Translations under genes and position numbers: made by a program
NCBI GenBank assembly: GCA_050295515.1
Contig: JBNKPU010000168.1
Coordinates: 47,899 to 111,898 of the forward strand
Length of the DNA stretch: 64,000 bases
DNA from: Bacteroidales bacterium
GTDB lineage: Bacteria; Bacteroidota; Bacteroidia; Bacteroidales; UBA10428
Direction of reading: 5' to 3'
Notes under the pieces: generated by a model
Told to the model about the DNA's origin: nothing
The model's input: only the letters and a program-made list of their open reading frames with translations
Databases searched by the model: none
Shown here: positions 3,626 to 62,768 of the stretch, piece after piece
Layout of the letters: the number at the start of each line of letters is the position of its first letter
Numbering within the stretch: position 1 is the first letter of the stretch

Positions 3626-3635
3626 GTTTAAATAG

Positions 3636-3917
3636 GTCTTGCTGAAAAAGTCAGCAAGTAGTGAGATGAATCATAGCACCGCTATGGTGAACCGACCATA
3701 GGGAGTTCATGAATGTAATAAAAATAAAGTGAGTATGAATAACCGAAACAAGTAAGTGAAACGACTTATATTGAAGCAATTTCAATAGGCAATAGATTTT
3801 CTAATGCATATTCGGGGTTTAAGCAATATTGAAGAATTCCTTGCTCGTAAAACTCATACTATCCATATAACATGCAGATAATGTGTTAAAAATGAGTTTT
3901 TCAACAGGCTATATGTA
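3636..3917 (+). repeat. mosaic MITE-like repeat, copy 1 (composite; lacks the usual left arm, carries the internal insertion module)
   Basis: 3661-3823 matches the copies at 49967, 52309 and 59679, sharing gtgagatgaatcatagcaccgctatggtg, cgaaacaagtaagtgaaacgacttatattgaagcaatttcaata and atagattttctaatgcatattcgggg. The leading hairpin cttgctgaaaaagtcagcaag (3638-3658) recurs at 57953. An imperfect inverted match to it (12 of 15) lies at 3894-3908. Confidence 0.75.
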
Positions 3918-25021: not shown

Positions 25022-25084
25022 AGATTATTTAGTCAACTGTAAAATAATAACTAACCGATTATTCTTTTAACGTATAATATTTTA

Positions 25085-25345
25085 ATTCTATAAGTTTTTT
25101 AGAAATTTCTGCTAAAACCTGGCAGATTAGCTTTGTAAATTCTTTGTTCTCAAGCCGGACTGGCTCTTACTTTTTATTCACAAGCGTTTATTTTTATATG
25201 GGTTCATGAACTTGCTTTGCTCGGTTCCTTGGATGAAAAAGTAAGCAAAAAATCAAGAAAAGCCTTAGGCCACCCACCTGCCATGTCCAACCCGATTACG
25301 CGAGGCTTTTCATCCGCCCGCACTAACCATCAACATTTGTGCTAT
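25085..25345 (+). repeat. family-2 repeat, copy A (inverted partner at 58195-58480)
   Basis: 25162-25264 equals the reverse complement of 58289-58391 with 1 mismatch in 103 bp (hand alignment). The flanks are more diverged. It contains the long inverted pair cttacttttt/aaaaagtaag and the palindrome gttcatgaac. Confidence 0.85.
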
Positions 25346-25470
25346 ATATTGTTATACAGTATTATGAATTATTTTACGCCCAACTGAGAAGTATATTCTC
25401 AACACTAACTGATGGTTTAAATTAGTCCAAATGCATCTTGGAGATATGAAGATAAAAATTAACCGCCACG

Positions 25471-49869: not shown

Positions 49870-49966
49870 ATTATGTTCAAGTGATTAAGTACTTATGATA
49901 TTGAGTGATTGTGTCAGATCACTGTTATCACTTTTGCAACAACTCTGCAATTCTATTAGCTACAAG

Positions 49967-50140
49967 GGTTAAACCCGTAATATGCATTAGAAAATCTATT
50001 ACATATTGAAACTGCTTCAATATAAGTCGTTTCACTTACTTGTTTCGATGCACCATAACGGTGCTATGATTTATCTCACCAAGTCCTTCTATTTTTGCAC
50101 TTTCAACCTTCATAACGAAGTTCTAATACATAATCAGGGC
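49967..50140 (-). repeat. mosaic MITE-like repeat, copy 2 (short form) inside the upxY-wzc gap
   Basis: Its reverse complement aligns end to end with 59679-59851 at roughly 90 percent identity by eye. The termini are cccgtaatatgcattag / ctaatacataatcaggg. Confidence 0.85.
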
Positions 50141-50461
50141 TAAATTTAAAATGAATTATTTAGATTGTTTACTGCTTGCCATCCAAAGTTTCAACTTAAG
50201 CTAATTAAATTGAAAAATTGTCAAAATGTTGTATTTTATGCTTTGATTTTCTGATTATAAAATTTTAATCAATACACCAGCTCTCACAGTCAAACTCCTA
50301 GTGTTTCCATAGCTTCGCCCGGTCAGTTACAGGATTAAAATCTGCAATAACTTGGCTATCAGTAGTATAATTAAAATGCCAAAAATTAATTCGTCTGCTT
50401 GGCATACAGAAATTTAGTTAAATAAGGAGATATGCCCTAACTAAACCTTAAATTTAATTGT

Positions 50462-50998: not shown

Positions 50999-51006
50999 CA
51001 AATGTA
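50999..51006 (-). promoter_or_regulatory. candidate TAnnTTTG promoter element upstream of upxY
   Basis: The minus strand reads TACATTTG, about 25 nt upstream of ATG 50977. An alternative TATCTTTG lies at 51192-51199 inside the palindrome tctatctttaccaaagataga. Confidence 0.3.
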
Positions 51007-51306
51007 CTACTGATTGAAACCAATAACAAGAAGAAAAAAGTATTTGATTTTCTTACTAATGATAGCGCTGTTTTGTAGGAATTGTTTGTTTATGAAATAG
51101 AATTAGCATCTTCCTTAACCGCTCCCATAAAGGTATTGCCCGGGAATGAATCAAACCTCGCTCCGTCATGAATATAGGCTTCTATCTTTACCAAAGATAG
51201 AACAGGCTGTAGGCCTTATTTATTTCAACCTGATAGCATGGCCCCGGAGATGAACAATAAGAAATTCAAGGTTCTAGGTTGATAGAAAAGATGTATTCTT
51301 TCCCTA

Positions 51307-52113
51307 TTATCGACTACTAACAGGTGAAAAATAATTCAGCACCAAAAACAGTGTTGTAATAGCCCCTAATGTCAAAGATATAGTAGGTATATTGTTCCTG
51401 AAGTTTTTGCTTTTTACTGGCTCTACATATACTATATCGTTAGGTAAAAGGAAAAATCCTTCGGATTTTAGAAGATCTGTACTGGTTAGGTCAAAACGGT
51501 AAGTCTTGGTTCCTTCTACACCTGGCCTTATTACCATAACCTTTCTTCTGTTTCCGAAAGTTGTAACATCACCGGCCGCACTGATCGCCTCAAGAACGGT
51601 TAGCTGGTTATTAAAATTGGTAAACATCCCAGGATTAGCTACCTCACCCATTACAGAATATTTAAAGGAAATAAGTTTTACTATAACTGTCGGATCTTTT
51701 AAAAACTTGTCTGTCTGGGCTACTATTGCAGTTTTGGCCTCCTCAAGTGTTTTTCCAACCACATTTACCTTGCCTATGACCGGGATTTCAACATTGCCTG
51801 AGTCATTGACATTATATCCATAAATATAAAAACTGGCGGCGTTATTATAAACATTTGCACCATACATTGGGGTAGTGTTTATAACTTCTGTGACTTCCTT
51901 ATTCATTGAAATGATCCTGATAAACAATACATCGCGTTGTTGAATTTTATAATCGGGAAAGCTATAAGGGAAAAAGTTGATTGAATCGGCATTTGATTCT
52001 GCAGACTGCAGGTAAACCAAATCCTTATAGCGGGTACAGGACTGTAAGCCTAAAAAAAGGACTATCCCAGAATAGAATATTAGTTTATATATTTTATGAT
52101 TTAGTATTTTCAT
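51307..52113 (-). CDS. wza: polysaccharide export outer-membrane lipoprotein (Wza-like)
   Basis: The lipoprotein signal LFLGLQSC follows ATG 52113; the track start TTG 52176 is less likely. Poly_export-like DYKIQQRDVLFIRI is present, followed by an SLBB-like region. Confidence 0.8.
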   Translation of the reverse strand: MKILNHKIYKLIFYSGIVLFLGLQSCTRYKDLVYLQSAESNADSINFFPYSFPDYKIQQRDVLFIRIISMNKEVTEVINTTPMYGANVYNNAASFYIYGYNVNDSGNVEIPVIGKVNVVGKTLEEAKTAIVAQTDKFLKDPTVIVKLISFKYSVMGEVANPGMFTNFNNQLTVLEAISAAGDVTTFGNRRKVMVIRPGVEGTKTYRFDLTSTDLLKSEGFFLLPNDIVYVEPVKSKNFRNNIPTISLTLGAITTLFLVLNYFSPVSSR

Positions 52114-52308: not shown

Positions 52309-52503
52309 CTTAAACCCGAAATATGCCTTAGAAAATCTATTAACCTGAGTTCGATATAAGTCGTTTCACTTACTTGTTTCGGTTATTCATACTCACTTTA
52401 TTTTTATTGCATTCATGAACTCCCTATGGTCGGTTCATCATAGCGGTGCCTTCTATTTTTGCATTTTCAACCTTCATAACGAAGCTCTAATGCATAATCC
52501 GGG
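52309..52503 (-). repeat. mosaic MITE-like repeat, copy 3 (long form with internal insertion module)
   Basis: It contains both terminal arms plus the module accgaccatagggagttcatgaatgcaataaaaataaagtgagtatgaataac, shared with copy 1. It ends 3 bp from the gpmI terminator. Confidence 0.85.
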
Positions 52504-52505
52504 AT

Positions 52506-52537
52506 AAAAAAAACCGGGACTATAAAGGTCCCGGTTT
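52506..52537 (-). terminator. rho-independent terminator after gpmI
   Basis: The minus strand reads aaaccgggacctttatagtcccggtttttttt, a 7-8 bp GC-rich stem plus a T8 run. Confidence 0.8.
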
Positions 52538-57809: not shown

Positions 57810-57952
57810 AGCAATATAATTAATAATATGACATTAAGCTTCCTATAACCAATAGGTAGCCTTTAACTTACTCTATAAATATTGCCGCTATAAATCGCTA
57901 AAGTAAATGAAAATCTTGAAGATCGAAAAAGGAAAAAGGAAATATATCTAGG

Positions 57953-58153
57953 GCTTGTTGAAAAAGTCAGAAAGTAGTGAGATGCGACTTGACAAAATGA
58001 AGACGTATTAGCATACTTCGAATTGCAGGCAAAGAGGTAGATTGCTACTTTCTGGCTAATACTTTCGGATTTATTATCAACTTTTTAGGTGCACATAATT
58101 TTAACCAGGATAATGTATTAGAACTTCGTTATGAAGGTTGAAAGTGTAAAAAA
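57953..58153 (+). repeat. mosaic repeat fragments (leader hairpin module plus isolated left arm)
   Basis: 57953-57985 gcttgttgaaaaagtcagaaagtagtgagatg matches 3637-3668. 58105-58153 ccaggataatgtattagaacttcgttatgaaggttgaaagtg matches the left arm of copies 2, 3 and 6. The 10 bp inverted pair cagaaagtag/ctactttctg spans 57968-58054. Confidence 0.7.
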
Positions 58154-58194: not shown

Positions 58195-58480
58195 AGGGCT
58201 GAACGTTAAAAAGCAACACTAAATGTGTTGTTTTAGTGAGGAGCCAGCTTGCAGGGCTGATAAAAAAAAGTTGCTAGTGGGCGGCCTAGGCTTTTCTTGA
58301 TTTTTTGCTTACTTTTTCATCCAAGGAACCGAGCAAAGCAAGTTCATGAACCCATATAAAAATAAACGCATGTGAATAAAAAGTAAGAGCCCGTCCGGCT
58401 AGAGGACAAAGGTTATTGACAGCTAATCTGCCAAGTTTTTGCAGGATTTTTAAAAAAGCTGGTAGAATTACAAGGATATT
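58195..58480 (-). repeat. family-2 repeat, copy B (inverted partner of 25085-25345)
   Basis: 58289-58391 is the reverse complement of 25162-25264 with 1 mismatch in 103 bp. The 66 aa ORF predicted here has no counterpart ORF at copy A. Confidence 0.85.
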
Positions 58481-58537
58481 TATCAACGCAACTATTTTTA
58501 TTTAGTTGATTATGTCGTATTTCATTTTTAACTATTT

Positions 58538-58571
58538 AATAGATTTTCTAATGCATATTCAGGGTTAAAGC
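58538..58571 (+). repeat. isolated right arm of the MITE-like repeat
   Basis: aatagattttctaatgcatattcagggttaaagc matches the right terminus of copies 1 and 6. Confidence 0.7.
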
Positions 58572-58634
58572 AAAGCGCGTTTAGACTTACTAAGCTAAAA
58601 GGATAAGGGAAACGGATAGAAGGAAAACAAGACA

Positions 58635-58886
58635 GTCCGTAAGGAAAGACCAAATGCCGATAAGGAGTAGACAAAGGTCCATAAGGAATACAAGAATGTC
58701 AGGTAACTATAGCCGAAATGCTTTAAGGAATACAAGAACGTCCATAAGGAACGCACAAAGGTCCATAAGGAATGCACAAACGTCCATAAGGAATGCACAA
58801 ACCTCCATAAGGAACGCACAAACGTCCATAAGGAATGCACAAACCTCCATAAGGAACGCATAAACGCCTTTAAGGAACAAGCAAAC
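58635..58886 (+). repeat. 21 bp tandem repeat array, 12 units
   Basis: TAAGGA recurs at 58640, 58661, 58682, 58724, 58745, 58766, 58787, 58808, 58829, 58850 and 58871, with a degenerate unit at 58703. The six central units (58740-58865) follow GTCCATAAGGAAYGCACAAAS almost perfectly. Edge units degenerate, with weaker echoes back to about 58598. Confidence 0.9.
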
Positions 58887-58947
58887 CATTCTCCAATAAA
58901 TATTGGGGATTTAAATAAATAGTTTAATTAACCTAAATTTCAATTAA

Positions 58948-59637
58948 ATGGGAACAAAAAAAACGTTATTGGAAGCTGAAACATTAGAACAGTAACGTGT
59001 CGCATTGGAAAATGCAGAAAACCAAACCGAAATTGCATCCGTAATGGCTGAATTGGGCTATGACAATGCAGAAATCACAGAAGGCAAGGCATTACTGGTT
59101 ACCACACGCCAAGCCTATGATTTCAACCAAACAGAAGACGAGGCATACGAGGGTTTTTCAAGTGTAAAATCAGAGCTGGAATCTACTTACAGGTCACATC
59201 GCAAAAAAGCGAAAGTCGTGTTCAGAAAAGATTCGCTTACAATGGATAAGCTGTCAATTTCTGGCAGTATTCCGCAGGCGTTTGTTCGCTTGTTGGAAAA
59301 AGCTAAAAAGTTTTATTCCACAGCAGGCGCAGATGAAGATATCCAAAACAAGCTGGCAAGGTTACAAATATCAGTAGAGGATATTACTGCTGGTGGTAAA
59401 CTAATAACTGATGTAGAAGCAGCAAGGGCTTTATACCTTAGAGAAAAAGGTGAATCACAAAATGCAACAAAAGTAAAAGATGCTGCATTTGCCAAACCAG
59501 ACCAACGTTTGCGGGAAGAGCTTACAAAACCATCCTGGTTTACCAAAAAGGCATTAGACTTTTCCCCTACACAAAAAAATAAATTAGCTCAGCTGAGCTC
59601 CACTTCGTTCCGGTTCGTGCTCCGTCAGCAACTTTAA
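58948..59637 (+). pseudogene. helical hypothetical protein interrupted by an in-frame TAA (candidate pseudogene)
   Basis: ATG 58948 opens MGTKKTLLEAETLEQ, then TAA at 58993-58995. The same frame continues into the 210 aa ORF from TTG 59005 (ENAENQTEIASVMAELGYDNAEITEGKAL). Alternatively the TTG start is genuine. Confidence 0.35.
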
Positions 59638-59678
59638 TGCAGTTTGCTAGAGAAACAAAGAGTAGTATAAACATTAAA

Positions 59679-59851
59679 TCCGGATTATGTAATTGAACTT
59701 CGTTATGAAGGTTGAAAGTGCAAAAATAGAAGGACTTGGTGAGATGAATCTTAGCACCGCTATGGTGCTTCGAAACAAGTAAGTGAAACGACTTATATTG
59801 AAGCAATTTCAATATGGTTTAGATTTTCTAATGCATATTTCGGGTTAAACC
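59679..59851 (+). repeat. mosaic MITE-like repeat, copy 6 (short form, complete)
   Basis: Left arm tccggattatgtaattgaacttcgttatgaaggttgaaagtgcaaaaatagaagg and right arm tagattttctaatgcatatttcgggttaaaccc. Internal hairpins are catagc/gctatg-type and tattgaa/ttcaata. It ends 4 bp from the stop codon of the VIT-vWA gene. Confidence 0.85.
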
Positions 59852-59855
59852 CAGC

Positions 59856-62768
59856 TTACTTCTTGAATTCTATTTCTCCAACCAAGAAGTCGCCTTGTTT
59901 GTTGGGCTCCAGCTGAAGTGTTATTATTTCTCTTTTCTCATTGGCAGAACCAAAATTTGTATATACAAAAGCACGTACTGTTACATTCCCTAATAGGAGC
60001 TGTTTTCTGGTTCCAAAAAAGTTCACATCTATTTTATATTTTCCTTCTATAGCATGTTTTAAGCGGAATTCCTCTGGTCCATATCCTTGTGTGATGTCAT
60101 TTGATATTTTGCCACCAATTTTTGTTTGGGTGTTAGAATAGCTACATCTTTCACTCTGGGGGTCGGTAACCCACAGATCGATATCTGTATCGTTGGCATC
60201 CCAGTCAATCACAATTCTTATATCAACTGGCATTTGCTTTATAAAGCATGCGTTGATTTCTGAGAAGTCAATTTTATTACCGTGATGGTGAATAATATTG
60301 TTTATGTCGTGAAGCACAATAAGCTCAATGCCAGGAAAACGTGAGATAATATCACTGTCCCAATCCTTATCAATAACCTGGTAAAGACTGTTAATTGCTT
60401 TCTGATATTCACCTTTTTGACTATAAGCCAGTCCAAGATCAATATAGGAATGAGGTTCAAATGAGCGGGTTTTCATTACTTCATGGAATACAGCCAATGC
60501 TTCATCGTAAAAATTATATTCCAATAATTTTCTTCCCAGTGTCCGCAGAAGTTCAGGGTCTTCCAGCTCGAGTTCTGCCAGGTTTGAAATTACTCTTAAT
60601 CCTTCATCCCGCTTTGATTTCTGGAACATATAGGTAGCTACATCGAAATAGAAGGATGGATTACCTTCATTGTCATCTTTAAGTTTTAAATAGGTTTTAT
60701 ATAGATTTTCTGTATCAGTAGCTTTCAGGTCATTCATATAAGGGGCATTGCTCTCCCATTTGTTTACGGTAATGGAAGAAGAATATTCCGATAGTCTGCC
60801 TTCTTGTTTTTTCTGTTTGCCCTCACGGCTTCGTGATACTGAACTTTGTCTTGGTGCAACAGTCTCTTCTAAATCTGCTTCTGCAGCCATATTAAAATCA
60901 ACTCCAGAAACTTCTAAATCATCGGTTGTGTTTAATTGATTTGGTGAAGATGGAGATGGAGCTATGTCATTATCATGTAGGATTTTTTCTTTAATTTTAT
61001 GGTCACCTACAGTTTCCCACCAATTGATATCTTCTTTAAACTGTTGGCAGATTTGATCTATACGATTTTGCCTGAATGTCTCTCTATCTTTTGTCTGTGT
61101 AGAAACAAGGGCATAATACTCATTCTGAAGCGATTTTGGTGGAACAATACCATACCTAACATAATCCTGAACATTATCCAGGACTATTAAAGAAGTTCCT
61201 GGTGTTACCAGGCTAAATTTCTTTCCGTGCGCCTTTATATCTTCGCTACTTCCTTCGACCAATAGCGATTTAAGCTTTTTCTGTGCCCATATACGTTCGC
61301 CAATGTTATTTTGTATGCGTTTACTATTGTCGACGAGTATTGTATGCGATTCAGTAATTGTATTTCCAAATCCAAAATGGAGCGTTATTTCATTTTGTGC
61401 ACCTTCAGCAATACCAGAACAGCTGAATTGATGTGTGACTGTTTGTCCGTTTTTTGGATAAAACTCCTTAATGCTTTCATTGTTGTATTCTGCACGAATA
61501 AACCTCTTTTGTTCATTTGTGAGGATTTGAAATGCATGCTCTTCAGAAATTCTAAATGCATCGATATAAGTTCCGTTTGATGAAGAAGAAATGAATTCCA
61601 AAAGATTATGGTCGGTAATGTTTGAGCTGTTTATAGCTATTACTGGCGATTTGAACCGGTATGTGGGTATCTCGCCAAAATTGGATAATCCATCAGTAAA
61701 CAGTAAAATTTCTTCTGACTGTAGTTGATGAAAATCTATGGCGCTTAGGTTTGTAGCTCCATCATAGGGGACAGATTTCAGCAAATTTATTAAATCAGGG
61801 CATTTTCCACCTTTTATGCTAAAGGTATTTGTTGAATGGAGTGTATTTGAAAAAGTGATTAAACTTATCGATCCCTTATTCATCCATTCCAGGTAACGCT
61901 CAAGAATCGATAGCTCTTTATCCAGGTCCCTGTTTTTTGCTGAGGCTGAAACATCCCATACAACGGTAATGTCAGCCGGTTTTGCCTTGTTTCTCATAGC
62001 CTCCTGAAGTCCCATGTTGATATAAAAATAGTTGTCGGAGGTTACAGTACCCTTATAGGTTAAAACTTCATTGATCTGATTTGGTTTTGGGATGGCGAAA
62101 CTTAAATAAGTATTTAGTTCGGCATCCTTTTCCTCGTATTTACTGATGAACGAGTTATGGATTTCTGTAAAATTTAAATTTATAGCCGGGTCTTTACTGT
62201 TTAGTGGCTTGGGTTTGTTCATGACCACTTCAACTTGAACAGAAAACTCGGCTAAAATGTGATTAAAGTTTAAAGGCAATTGGTATATAAATTCCTTTTC
62301 GTTGCCCCTCAGCTCTTGTTCAAAAGCAATAACAGCTTTTTTATACCCTTTGGCAGGAATAGGATAAATACGGGTTTTAAAATTATTGCCCTTGGTTACT
62401 TCTACTAATCCGGGGTCGATGTTTTGTCGAACAACAGCTTCAAAAGCTTGTGTAGCTTTTTCCTTATCAACAACAACGCCTTCGCGCATTTCACCATTTA
62501 CGTCCAAGGCATACCGTGAGACAGAAACTCCATTTGCCAATGGAAAATTCAATTCTCCTTCCATGATCCTGTTGTTGTGGTTGTAGAATTGCATTTCGAA
62601 AGTTGTTGTAGCAATATTTTCTACAACGAAAACAGAAATATCCAGTTTTCTTAACTCTATAGGCTTGTCATCTGACGAACCTGTTTCAATGGCGGGAATA
62701 CGAATGGTCTGTGCTTCTAACATAGTGGTAGATAGGATTATTTGGAGTAAAATTATTATTTTTTTCAT
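59856..62768 (-). CDS. secreted VIT - von Willebrand A - TPR - DUF2135 multidomain protein
   Basis: Signal peptide MKKIIILLQIILSTTMLEAQ from ATG 62768; the track start at 62813 adds 15 aa. The N-terminus is VIT-like (VENIATTTFEMQFYN...GELNFPL). The vWA MIDAS motif is VVWDVSAS. TPR helices include EALAVFHEVMK...GEYQKAINSLYQVI. C-terminal IDLWVTDPQSERCSY...DITQGYGPEEF resembles DUF2135. Confidence 0.8.
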   Translation of the reverse strand: MKKIIILLQIILSTTMLEAQTIRIPAIETGSSDDKPIELRKLDISVFVVENIATTTFEMQFYNHNNRIMEGELNFPLANGVSVSRYALDVNGEMREGVVVDKEKATQAFEAVVRQNIDPGLVEVTKGNNFKTRIYPIPAKGYKKAVIAFEQELRGNEKEFIYQLPLNFNHILAEFSVQVEVVMNKPKPLNSKDPAINLNFTEIHNSFISKYEEKDAELNTYLSFAIPKPNQINEVLTYKGTVTSDNYFYINMGLQEAMRNKAKPADITVVWDVSASAKNRDLDKELSILERYLEWMNKGSISLITFSNTLHSTNTFSIKGGKCPDLINLLKSVPYDGATNLSAIDFHQLQSEEILLFTDGLSNFGEIPTYRFKSPVIAINSSNITDHNLLEFISSSSNGTYIDAFRISEEHAFQILTNEQKRFIRAEYNNESIKEFYPKNGQTVTHQFSCSGIAEGAQNEITLHFGFGNTITESHTILVDNSKRIQNNIGERIWAQKKLKSLLVEGSSEDIKAHGKKFSLVTPGTSLIVLDNVQDYVRYGIVPPKSLQNEYYALVSTQTKDRETFRQNRIDQICQQFKEDINWWETVGDHKIKEKILHDNDIAPSPSSPNQLNTTDDLEVSGVDFNMAAEADLEETVAPRQSSVSRSREGKQKKQEGRLSEYSSSITVNKWESNAPYMNDLKATDTENLYKTYLKLKDDNEGNPSFYFDVATYMFQKSKRDEGLRVISNLAELELEDPELLRTLGRKLLEYNFYDEALAVFHEVMKTRSFEPHSYIDLGLAYSQKGEYQKAINSLYQVIDKDWDSDIISRFPGIELIVLHDINNIIHHHGNKIDFSEINACFIKQMPVDIRIVIDWDANDTDIDLWVTDPQSERCSYSNTQTKIGGKISNDITQGYGPEEFRLKHAIEGKYKIDVNFFGTRKQLLLGNVTVRAFVYTNFGSANEKREIITLQLEPNKQGDFLVGEIEFKK

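Follow-up and report, generated by a model that had tools for sequence, protein, structure and literature searches.

A probable UpxY recruitment site between upxY and wzc in a Bacteroidales polysaccharide operon

We analyzed a 64,000-nucleotide stretch of DNA, hereafter the window, from a Bacteroidales bacterium (GTDB lineage UBA10428; GenBank assembly GCA_050295515.1, contig JBNKPU010000168.1, positions 47,899 to 111,898 of the forward strand), concentrating on the gap between upxY, which encodes a NusG paralog, and wzc, the first gene of a long polysaccharide operon. On the operon strand, this gap holds a hairpin followed by ACTGACCGGGCGAAGCTATG (window positions 50304-50351), a feature absent from the initial annotation of this DNA. 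It resembles the ops-type sites at which NusG paralogs are recruited and belongs to a motif family that recurs beside upxY in other genomes. We think it likely that the gap is an ops-like UpxY recruitment leader into which a miniature inverted-repeat transposable element (MITE) has inserted in this lineage, the locus then consisting of a upxY promoter, upxY, a loading site, the MITE, and wzc with the rest of the operon. Recruitment of this kind is already known; what we regard as new is the regulator-first layout, with the site placed after upxY, and the extended consensus.

A conserved ops-like site downstream of upxY

The conserved block of the site, ACTGACCGGGCGAAGCT, lies at 50327-50311 and includes the heptamer GCGAAGC at 50318-50312; d(GCGAAGC) is a classic, extraordinarily stable DNA mini-hairpin. 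ACTGACNGGGCGNAGCT has a single match in the 64 kb, on the operon strand, even when three mismatches are allowed, and a 37-nt profile of the core likewise has one match in the window (20.8 bits, E = 1.6e-4). When the leader is aligned with those of relatives, this core is the sole conserved block. Using the elemental pause consensus and the analogy with ops, and taking the invariant T three bases after AGC as the pause position, we predict a pause at U50309 with G50308 at +1 (G-10/Y-1/G+1). A nascent-RNA pause hairpin is predicted at 50351-50322 in the minimum-energy folds of both the whole gap and the local segment; its 3' arm is the conserved ...ACTGAC block, and it would end at about -14 from the pause.

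For comparison, we collected 83 upxY loci from GTDB species representatives. The four closest loci (L002, L005, L006 and L007) share a neighborhood (SprB, MacB/FtsX, RbfA and TrpRS) and read epimerase, upxY, an untranslated gap of 177-313 bp, wza, wzc and wzx, with no upxZ. Their gaps have in common the block ACTGAC-N-GGGCG-R-AGCT, which stands 128-147 nt from the upxY stop codon, compared with 144 nt in the window. For the motif itself, the offset from the stop in these four loci is 113-135 nt. Across the family, the consensus is TG(T/G)GACTGA-N4-GCGRAGC-Y-N-T-R. The core profile matched 23 of the 83 loci at E < 0.01, all on the upxY strand: 21 of these matches lie 33-224 nt downstream of the upxY stop and two, in Ancylomarina, about 110 nt upstream of its start, and an antisense control was flat. 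Motif-bearing loci occur in Pedobacter and Mucilaginibacter as well. Within 600 nt downstream of upxY, GCGNAGC occurs 29 times versus 5 times for its reverse complement. The mini-hairpin is conserved in relatives as GCGRAGC, always with a pyrimidine on its 3' flank, and AGC is followed by Y-N-T in all 27 genome-derived instances and then by a purine in 26, which fits the elemental pause consensus. One locus, from an uncultured Sphingobacteriaceae metagenome-assembled genome (MAG; L041, 4610-4691), has two tandem motifs 49 nt apart downstream of a single upxY.

The upstream hairpin varies across the family in its 5' arm and loop; the 3' arm is conserved. Since the variable loop lengths preclude a reliable MAFFT covariance seed, we assessed the hairpin by energy z-scores and by swapping arms. 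Family hairpins are more stable than the folds obtained after shuffling their upstream part (mean z = -0.87, p = 8e-11), and each locus's own 3' arm folds better than arms swapped between loci, by 1.2 kcal/mol (Wilcoxon p = 2e-5). Of 105 motif instances, 100 have a minimum-energy fold in which the 3' arm is paired, a count that has no shuffled control.

We also searched in the reverse direction, querying JGI metagenomes with the motif alone (TGNGACTGANNNGGCGRAGCYGTG). This gave at least 120 matches; the matches listed represent 80 loci, 55 of which are assessable, in that a upxY was detected or each flank extends to 700 nt or more. Among these 55 listed loci, a upxY homologue starts 4-537 nt downstream on the same strand in 23 (the Bacteroides layout) and ends 62-705 nt upstream in 12 (the layout of the window). 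In ten listed loci with no upxY, the first open reading frame (ORF) after the motif was a polysaccharide gene in six cases: two wza, two UDP-glucose dehydrogenase, one UDP-galactopyranose mutase (Glf) and one NAD-epimerase. As judged from these genomic contexts, the motif is a strand-specific marker of polysaccharide-operon leaders that is tightly linked to upxY.

The best characterized counterparts come from Bacteroides fragilis, where opsX sites, each about 40 bp long and situated in the 5' leader, recruit UpxY. Such a site has a NusA-enhanced pause hairpin and, after it, a hairpin in the non-template DNA whose stem halves read GCG...AGC (YGCGNAGCR); in Class-1 opsX (PSA, PSB and PSE), the pause hairpin ends about 9-14 nt before the pause and the upxY start codon lies at about +41 (Saba 2024, Nat Commun, PMC11685472). 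The window resembles this arrangement in having a UpxY-family regulator encoded in its own polysaccharide operon, in the predicted composite of about 40 nt in which a nascent-RNA pause hairpin precedes a GCG-N-AGC non-template hairpin, and in the pyrimidine at the predicted pause position. Its GCGAAGC heptamer is identical to that of B. fragilis opsE (CTGCGAAGCATA). Unlike opsX, the site lies about 115-150 nt past the upxY stop codon rather than ahead of the gene in its 5' leader, the heptamer is flanked by G...T and not by Y...R, the family has a conserved TG(T/G)GACTGA block upstream of the core, and a MITE separates the site from the first controlled gene. The GACTGA block could be the upstream-duplex DNA that is contacted by the regulator, in Saba's terms. 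The locus also differs from the Bacteroides UpxY/UpxZ system in having no upxZ; two B. fragilis UpxYs are likewise without UpxZ (PMC7593976).

With Escherichia coli RfaH and ops, the window would share the recruitment of a NusG paralog to a paused complex by a short non-template GCG/AGC hairpin; it also shares a location in the leader of a long envelope-polysaccharide operon and, as predicted, the G-10/Y-1/G+1 pause context. About a third of the motif loci among the matches listed have no adjacent regulator gene, which recalls RfaH acting in trans. The E. coli ops 12-mer (GGCGGTAGnnTG, within JUMPstart) is not what stands at the window's site, which reads GGCGAAGCTATG; the two have GGCG, AGC and the terminal TG in common, and the window's loop is different and one base shorter. 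Unlike ops, the window has the 7-nt loop-stem GCGAAGC and not GCGGTAGC, an extra upstream hairpin and duplex component, and a regulator encoded in cis. In the literature mentioning UpxY, our coverage of which is incomplete, we found no published description of such sites outside Bacteroides.

Several observations weigh against a UpxY recruitment site in the gap. The only experimentally characterized opsX sites lie upstream of upxY, and the flanks of the window heptamer are a misfit to the Bacteroides YGCGNAGCR. The window's pause hairpin is weak by itself (-5.7 to -7.2 kcal/mol, z about 0), and the otherwise invariant G of TG(T/G)GACTGA is an A here, for which a U in the 5' arm compensates. 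This type of motif is missing from 58 of the 83 upxY loci, and 20 of the 55 assessable metagenome loci among the matches listed have no upxY within 800 nt. Of 22 downstream-type loci, 5 contain the promoter box TAnnTTTG in the interval from stop codon to motif (8 such boxes versus 1.6 expected). Finally, the function we assign to the site is deduced from sequence.

Some of these points could also be taken to mean that the motif serves another DNA- or RNA-binding regulator, or is itself a promoter element, rather than a loading site for a NusG paralog: motif loci with no nearby upxY would fit such a role, and UpxY loading and pausing at the motif are predictions. We give this idea hardly any credence, as the motif is strictly co-oriented with upxY and polysaccharide genes, its GCG-N-AGC core, upstream hairpin and pause context match the experimentally defined ops and opsX sites, it lies downstream of consensus promoter boxes and not at them, and no Rfam family was found at the motif.

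The upxY locus, its displaced wza and its putative promoters

The features of the locus are collected in Table 1. On the minus strand, the genes run 5' to 3' from iPGM (54075-52561) through wza, upxY and the gap to wzc (49869-47485), followed by wzx and a closely spaced run of polysaccharide genes about 25 kb long.

Table 1. Positions of the main features in the 64-kb window
Feature	Position	Strand	Basis or remark
Downstream polysaccharide operon, ~28.7 kb (wzc, wzx, sulfotransferase, methyltransferases, glycosyltransferases, others)	21153-49869	-	Gene calls, spacing
97-nt segment from MITE to wzc ATG	49870-49966	-	z = 0.15 (no fold beyond chance); no exact TAnnTTTG
MITE-like repeat, 179 bp, non-coding, hairpin-rich	49967-50145	.	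Repeat comparison, inverted-repeat search
A+U-rich leader spacer, ops-like site to MITE	50146-50303	-	No ORF; z = -0.69; unalignable with relatives
Conserved ops-like core	50304-50333	-	Pattern, profile and leader-alignment matches
Predicted nascent-RNA pause hairpin, GUUAUUGCAG [AUUUUAAUC] CUGUAA(C)UGAC	50322-50351	-	Minimum-energy folds
Hairpin of the initial annotation, AUGCCAAG...UUUGGCAU, then U/A-rich tail	50376-50405	-	Fold prediction
upxY, UpxY-family NusG paralog, 171 aa	50462-50977	-	Pfam and NCBIfam profiles
Putative upxY promoter: TTG 51029-51027, 20-nt spacer, -7 box TACATTTG 51006-50999	50999-51029	-	Exact TAnnTTTG, coding strand
wza, outer-membrane polysaccharide export protein	51307-52113	-	Pfam Poly_export and SLBB
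Second MITE copy, same orientation as gap copy	52309-52509	.	Brackets wza-upxY-leader together with gap copy

The upxY product contains a NusG NGN domain (Pfam PF02357, 1.2e-19) and scores 155.7 bits against the NCBIfam profile NF033644 (antiterm_UpxY; cutoff 100), with positions 1-164 of the 164 in the profile covered. Against TIGR01955 (RfaH), it scores 75.7 bits, below the cutoff of 144.5. The gene is flanked by wza and wzc, has the same orientation as the polysaccharide operon and precedes 28.7 kb of exopolysaccharide genes. It is an intact, bona fide member of the UpxY family, not RfaH, and the closest UpxY in a collection of 5.8 billion proteins is only 67% identical. Spacing in the downstream operon is tight save for one 449-nt gap (25022-25470), which contains another repeat.

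Compared along its whole length with the wza found after upxY in relatives, the window's wza shows 56-75% identity; by homology, it is the true orthologue of the gene after the leader in those genomes, displaced to a position upstream of upxY and the ops-like site. None of the 83 upxY loci has the order wza-upxY-wzc, and in Sphingobacteriia wza-wzc-upxY is common. Pattern and profile searches of the 64-kb window found no second ops-like site that might serve wza, 5' of which lie a terminator, a MITE copy and a further hairpin (52258-52239), with no exact TAnnTTTG.

This unusual arrangement raises the question of whether the gap is a rearrangement scar, or an artefact of MAG assembly. The wza/upxY swap and the MITEs would then mark a shuffled locus whose ops-like site is a remnant no longer connected to the operon. 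The order of genes is unique among the 83 loci, two direct copies of the MITE bracket wza, upxY and the leader, the epimerase and kinase genes that neighbor the locus in relatives are missing, and the source is a MAG contig. We nevertheless regard a scar or artefact as very unlikely: the genes upxY, wza and wzc are each intact and of full length, the core fits the family consensus save for the one compensated G-to-A change in the hairpin arm, its distance from upxY is normal, and the MITE copies differ by about 8-12%, which makes their collapse by the assembler unlikely. The MITE-bracketed block does hint, speculatively, at a repeat-associated rearrangement.

The putative upxY promoter, a good one of the Bacteroidota type by sequence, places its -7 box about 22 nt 5' of the upxY ATG. 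Of 80 loci, 47 have an exact TAnnTTTG no more than 150 nt 5' of upxY, versus 11% expected. Among the 58 loci lacking the ops-like motif, the upstream promoter box TATCTTTG is the sole enriched 8-mer, and no enriched 8-mer is shared downstream of upxY in these 58. Separately, the 329-nt spacer between wza and upxY contains a perfect 10-bp inverted repeat, TTCTATCTTT ggt AAAGATAGAA (51180-51202), whose coding strand carries the -7 box TATCTTTG in exact form; elsewhere, this box is the top enriched 8-mer upstream of upxY (21 of 57 loci).

A separate promoter within the gap might instead drive the wzc operon, either from upstream of the ops-like site or from inside or after the MITE; in the latter case the site would be bypassed. 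A near-consensus box, TAAATTTC, at about 50421-50414 is shared with L002, and matches to the -7 box at seven of eight positions occur at similar places in the window, L002, L005 and L007. The wzc-proximal inverted repeat of the MITE carries a second candidate, TAGATTTT, and the MITE copies beside wza and beside wzc are oriented alike with respect to the gene that follows each. The enrichment of TAnnTTTG between stop and motif in five loci makes an internal promoter upstream of the motif possible in some lineages, and the near-consensus boxes shared with relatives make one conceivable here. For the window we consider a promoter that drives the operon from the gap unlikely: there is no exact TAnnTTTG on the coding strand of the gap, the only exact -7 box of the MITE points antisense, and a promoter upstream of the site would leave the UpxY model unchanged. 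A scan of the gap for sigma-70-type promoters gave promoter-like matches at or under the shuffle expectation. In some loci, the motif begins 33-50 nt after the upxY stop, which leaves no room for a separate promoter there and favors co-transcription with upxY. The initial annotation had drawn attention to the lack of TAnnTTTG between upxY and wzc. The minus strand indeed has none, but with a probability of about 0.68 of finding zero in 585 positions on one strand at the window's own rate, the absence is expected by chance and uninformative either way.

The untranslated gap and its MITE

The initial annotation had described about 590 bp after upxY with no ORF of 60 aa or more, and this description holds: the gap (49870-50461) is 592 bp long, its longest ORF has 45 aa and stops occur in all six frames. 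Six-frame translation and tblastn found no pseudogene remnants of the relatives' wza, epimerase, kinase or APS-kinase in either large gap. Rfam gave nothing at its gathering threshold in the whole window, with only noise at E values up to 10 around the gap. We rejected a 35-aa ORF annotated in GenBank at 50298-50405 as probably spurious, since it runs across the conserved ops-like site and relatives have no corresponding call. The gap is most likely a transcribed, non-coding leader of the polysaccharide operon. That no upxZ follows upxY, as had also been noted, is borne out by the lack of a sufficiently long ORF but is not unusual, as a long gap after upxY with no upxZ is the norm for the lineage, to judge from the closest relatives; a directly following upxZ is characteristic of Bacteroides.

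A further proposal of the initial annotation was that the hairpin at 50376-50405, the MITE, or both act as an attenuator or terminator, so that the operon stays silent without read-through by UpxY, the MITE perhaps having been co-opted for this role. The hairpin exists (8 bp, a 14-nt loop, -6.8 kcal/mol), but its stability is at chance level (z = -0.87; 35 of 200 shuffles equally stable) and it is not conserved in an alignment of the relatives' leaders. With its long loop, only three G-C pairs and no call in a terminator scan, we rejected it as an intrinsic terminator. Being 5' of the putative loading site, it would also be out of reach of UpxY loaded at that site. In favor of the MITE, it is downstream of the putative loading site, its sense RNA is very stable (-50.2 kcal/mol, z = -4.7; none of 200 shuffles as stable), and the 449 nt from site to first gene is the longest such distance among 22 comparable loci (median 75, maximum 344). 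This evidence and the presence of a second repeat in the operon's only other large gap are both compatible with operons that tolerate or use structured inserts. Yet the terminator scan found no sense-strand stem with a U-tract anywhere in the gap, no C-rich, G-poor tract for Rho loading was seen in the leader (C/G = 0.79), and members of the MITE family occupy all types of intergenic site. Comparison with orthologous loci lacking the insertion, which the annotation had suggested, also speaks against co-option, as related leaders without the MITE still have the ops-like site. We find an attenuator of this kind quite improbable. The idea that the operon depends on UpxY-dependent read-through survives in spirit, through the conserved ops-like element rather than the structures originally named, and by analogy it is very likely within the gap that the NusG-like UpxY influences how the downstream operon is transcribed.

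The hairpin-rich repeat reported in the gap is confirmed, with a slightly longer span than first given and at least five copies in the window, far beyond chance. It is small, has stops in all frames and ends in imperfect terminal inverted repeats of 24 nt (75% complementary; 49969-49992 and 50121-50144). Beyond the gap copy, we found dispersed copies at 52309-52509, 59673-59869 and 3633-3823 and a split copy at 58096-58152 and 58527-58570 (86-94% identity); the match with the copy at 59673-59869 runs on to 49949. Read by eye, the four complete copies have no consistent flanking direct repeat that would mark a target-site duplication, and their TTWA ends appear to be part of the inverted repeat. 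A 24-mer common to the four copies had no match in JGI metagenomes, and the family may be restricted to this lineage. No parent insertion sequence (IS) was found in the 64-kb window, the part of this genome that was covered.

Bacterial MITEs and intergenic repeats that are co-transcribed with operons include the Correia elements of Neisseria, enterobacterial ERIC/BIME and pneumococcal RUP/BOX. The window's repeat resembles these in its size of about 180 bp, lack of coding capacity, terminal inverted repeats, many intergenic copies and strong RNA folding, and in its frequent position beside terminators or within operon leaders; it differs in having no evident target-site duplication and no parent IS that we could find. 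Members of the family sit in convergent, divergent and terminator-adjacent spacers, and the element is absent from the equivalent leaders of L002, L005, L006 and L007. Given this dispersal, the lack of a sense terminator signature and the related leaders that have the same site and no repeat, the MITE, which starts 163 nt downstream of the predicted pause, looks like a later, lineage-specific passenger insertion at a permissive position beyond the loading site.

Several other features of the repeats were seen in the window. The iPGM gene ends in a strong intrinsic terminator (52537-52511; a 10-bp stem with six G-C pairs and a T-run), and the end of the MITE copy at 52309-52509 falls right within this T-run, which points to A/T-rich terminator tails as places of insertion. 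The copies fall into two subfamilies with the same ends and different internal modules, one comprising 52309-52509 and 3633-3823 and the other 49967-50145 and 59673-59869; the copy at 3633-3823 has a different, terminator-like right end in common with 57949-57984. On the strand opposite the operon, the gap copy carries a terminator-like hairpin (GCACC-loop-GGTGC with a T-rich tail; 50050-50097) followed by an exact -7 box, TATTTTTG, which would point antisense into the 3' end of upxY. This antisense box also occurs at 52454-52461 and, on the other strand, at 59721-59728.

The ends of the split copy lie about 375 bp apart around a second repeat family, in what looks like a nested insertion. This second family has two inverted copies (25080-25265 and 58288-58473; 186 nt, 89%), one of them in the operon's 449-nt gap, and dispersed repeats occupy three of the four large gaps in the gene cluster. 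At 58598-58908, in a 1.2-kb divergent spacer between an M3 peptidase gene and an ORF at 59005, there are at least 12 tandem 21-nt units (approximately TAAGGAAYRCACAAACSTCCA); the 3' units are 88-91% identical and the array decays toward its 5' end.

Proposed mechanism and implications

In the mechanism we propose, transcription would start at the upxY promoter (TTG-N20-TACATTTG) and run through upxY into the leader. About 150 nt past the upxY stop, RNA polymerase would meet the composite signal, namely the hairpin and GCGAAGC, and pause near 50309. UpxY made from earlier transcripts would bind the paused complex at this signal and convert it to a pause- and termination-resistant form, and the modified polymerase could then cross the remaining 440 nt of untranslated RNA, tolerating the strongly folded MITE, and continue through the 28.7-kb operon. 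The wza gene, moved upstream of upxY, would now be outside UpxY control. An internal promoter 5' of the ops-like site would not alter what the site does in this scheme.

A broader generalization is conceivable, which we put forward as doubtful: that in many environmental Bacteroidota upxY is expressed unconditionally and the highly conserved TG(T/G)GACTGA-N4-GCGRAGC-YNTR, placed immediately behind it, then gates the rest of the operon, the present locus being one in which the gate has captured a MITE and wza has escaped it. If true, such a regulator-first switch would act as a feed-forward device that sets a delay or a threshold, in contrast to the self-activating layout of Bacteroides, and the -50 kcal/mol RNA structure of the MITE would make downstream expression strictly UpxY-dependent.

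UpxY-type NusG paralogs are found in about half of Bacteroidota, and to our knowledge their recruitment sites have so far been defined only in B. fragilis. The gap in the window can now be read as a leader in which the ops-like site is probably functional and the MITE and A/U-rich hairpin are probably incidental. The site is sharply conserved over about 24 nt, can be found by sequence alone in genomes and metagenomes, and marks the leaders of polysaccharide operons whether it precedes upxY, follows it or has no upxY next to it, which makes three layouts. The motif offers a handle for annotating UpxY regulons outside gut Bacteroides, and its layouts allow one to ask whether placing the site after the regulator gene alters the logic of the circuit.

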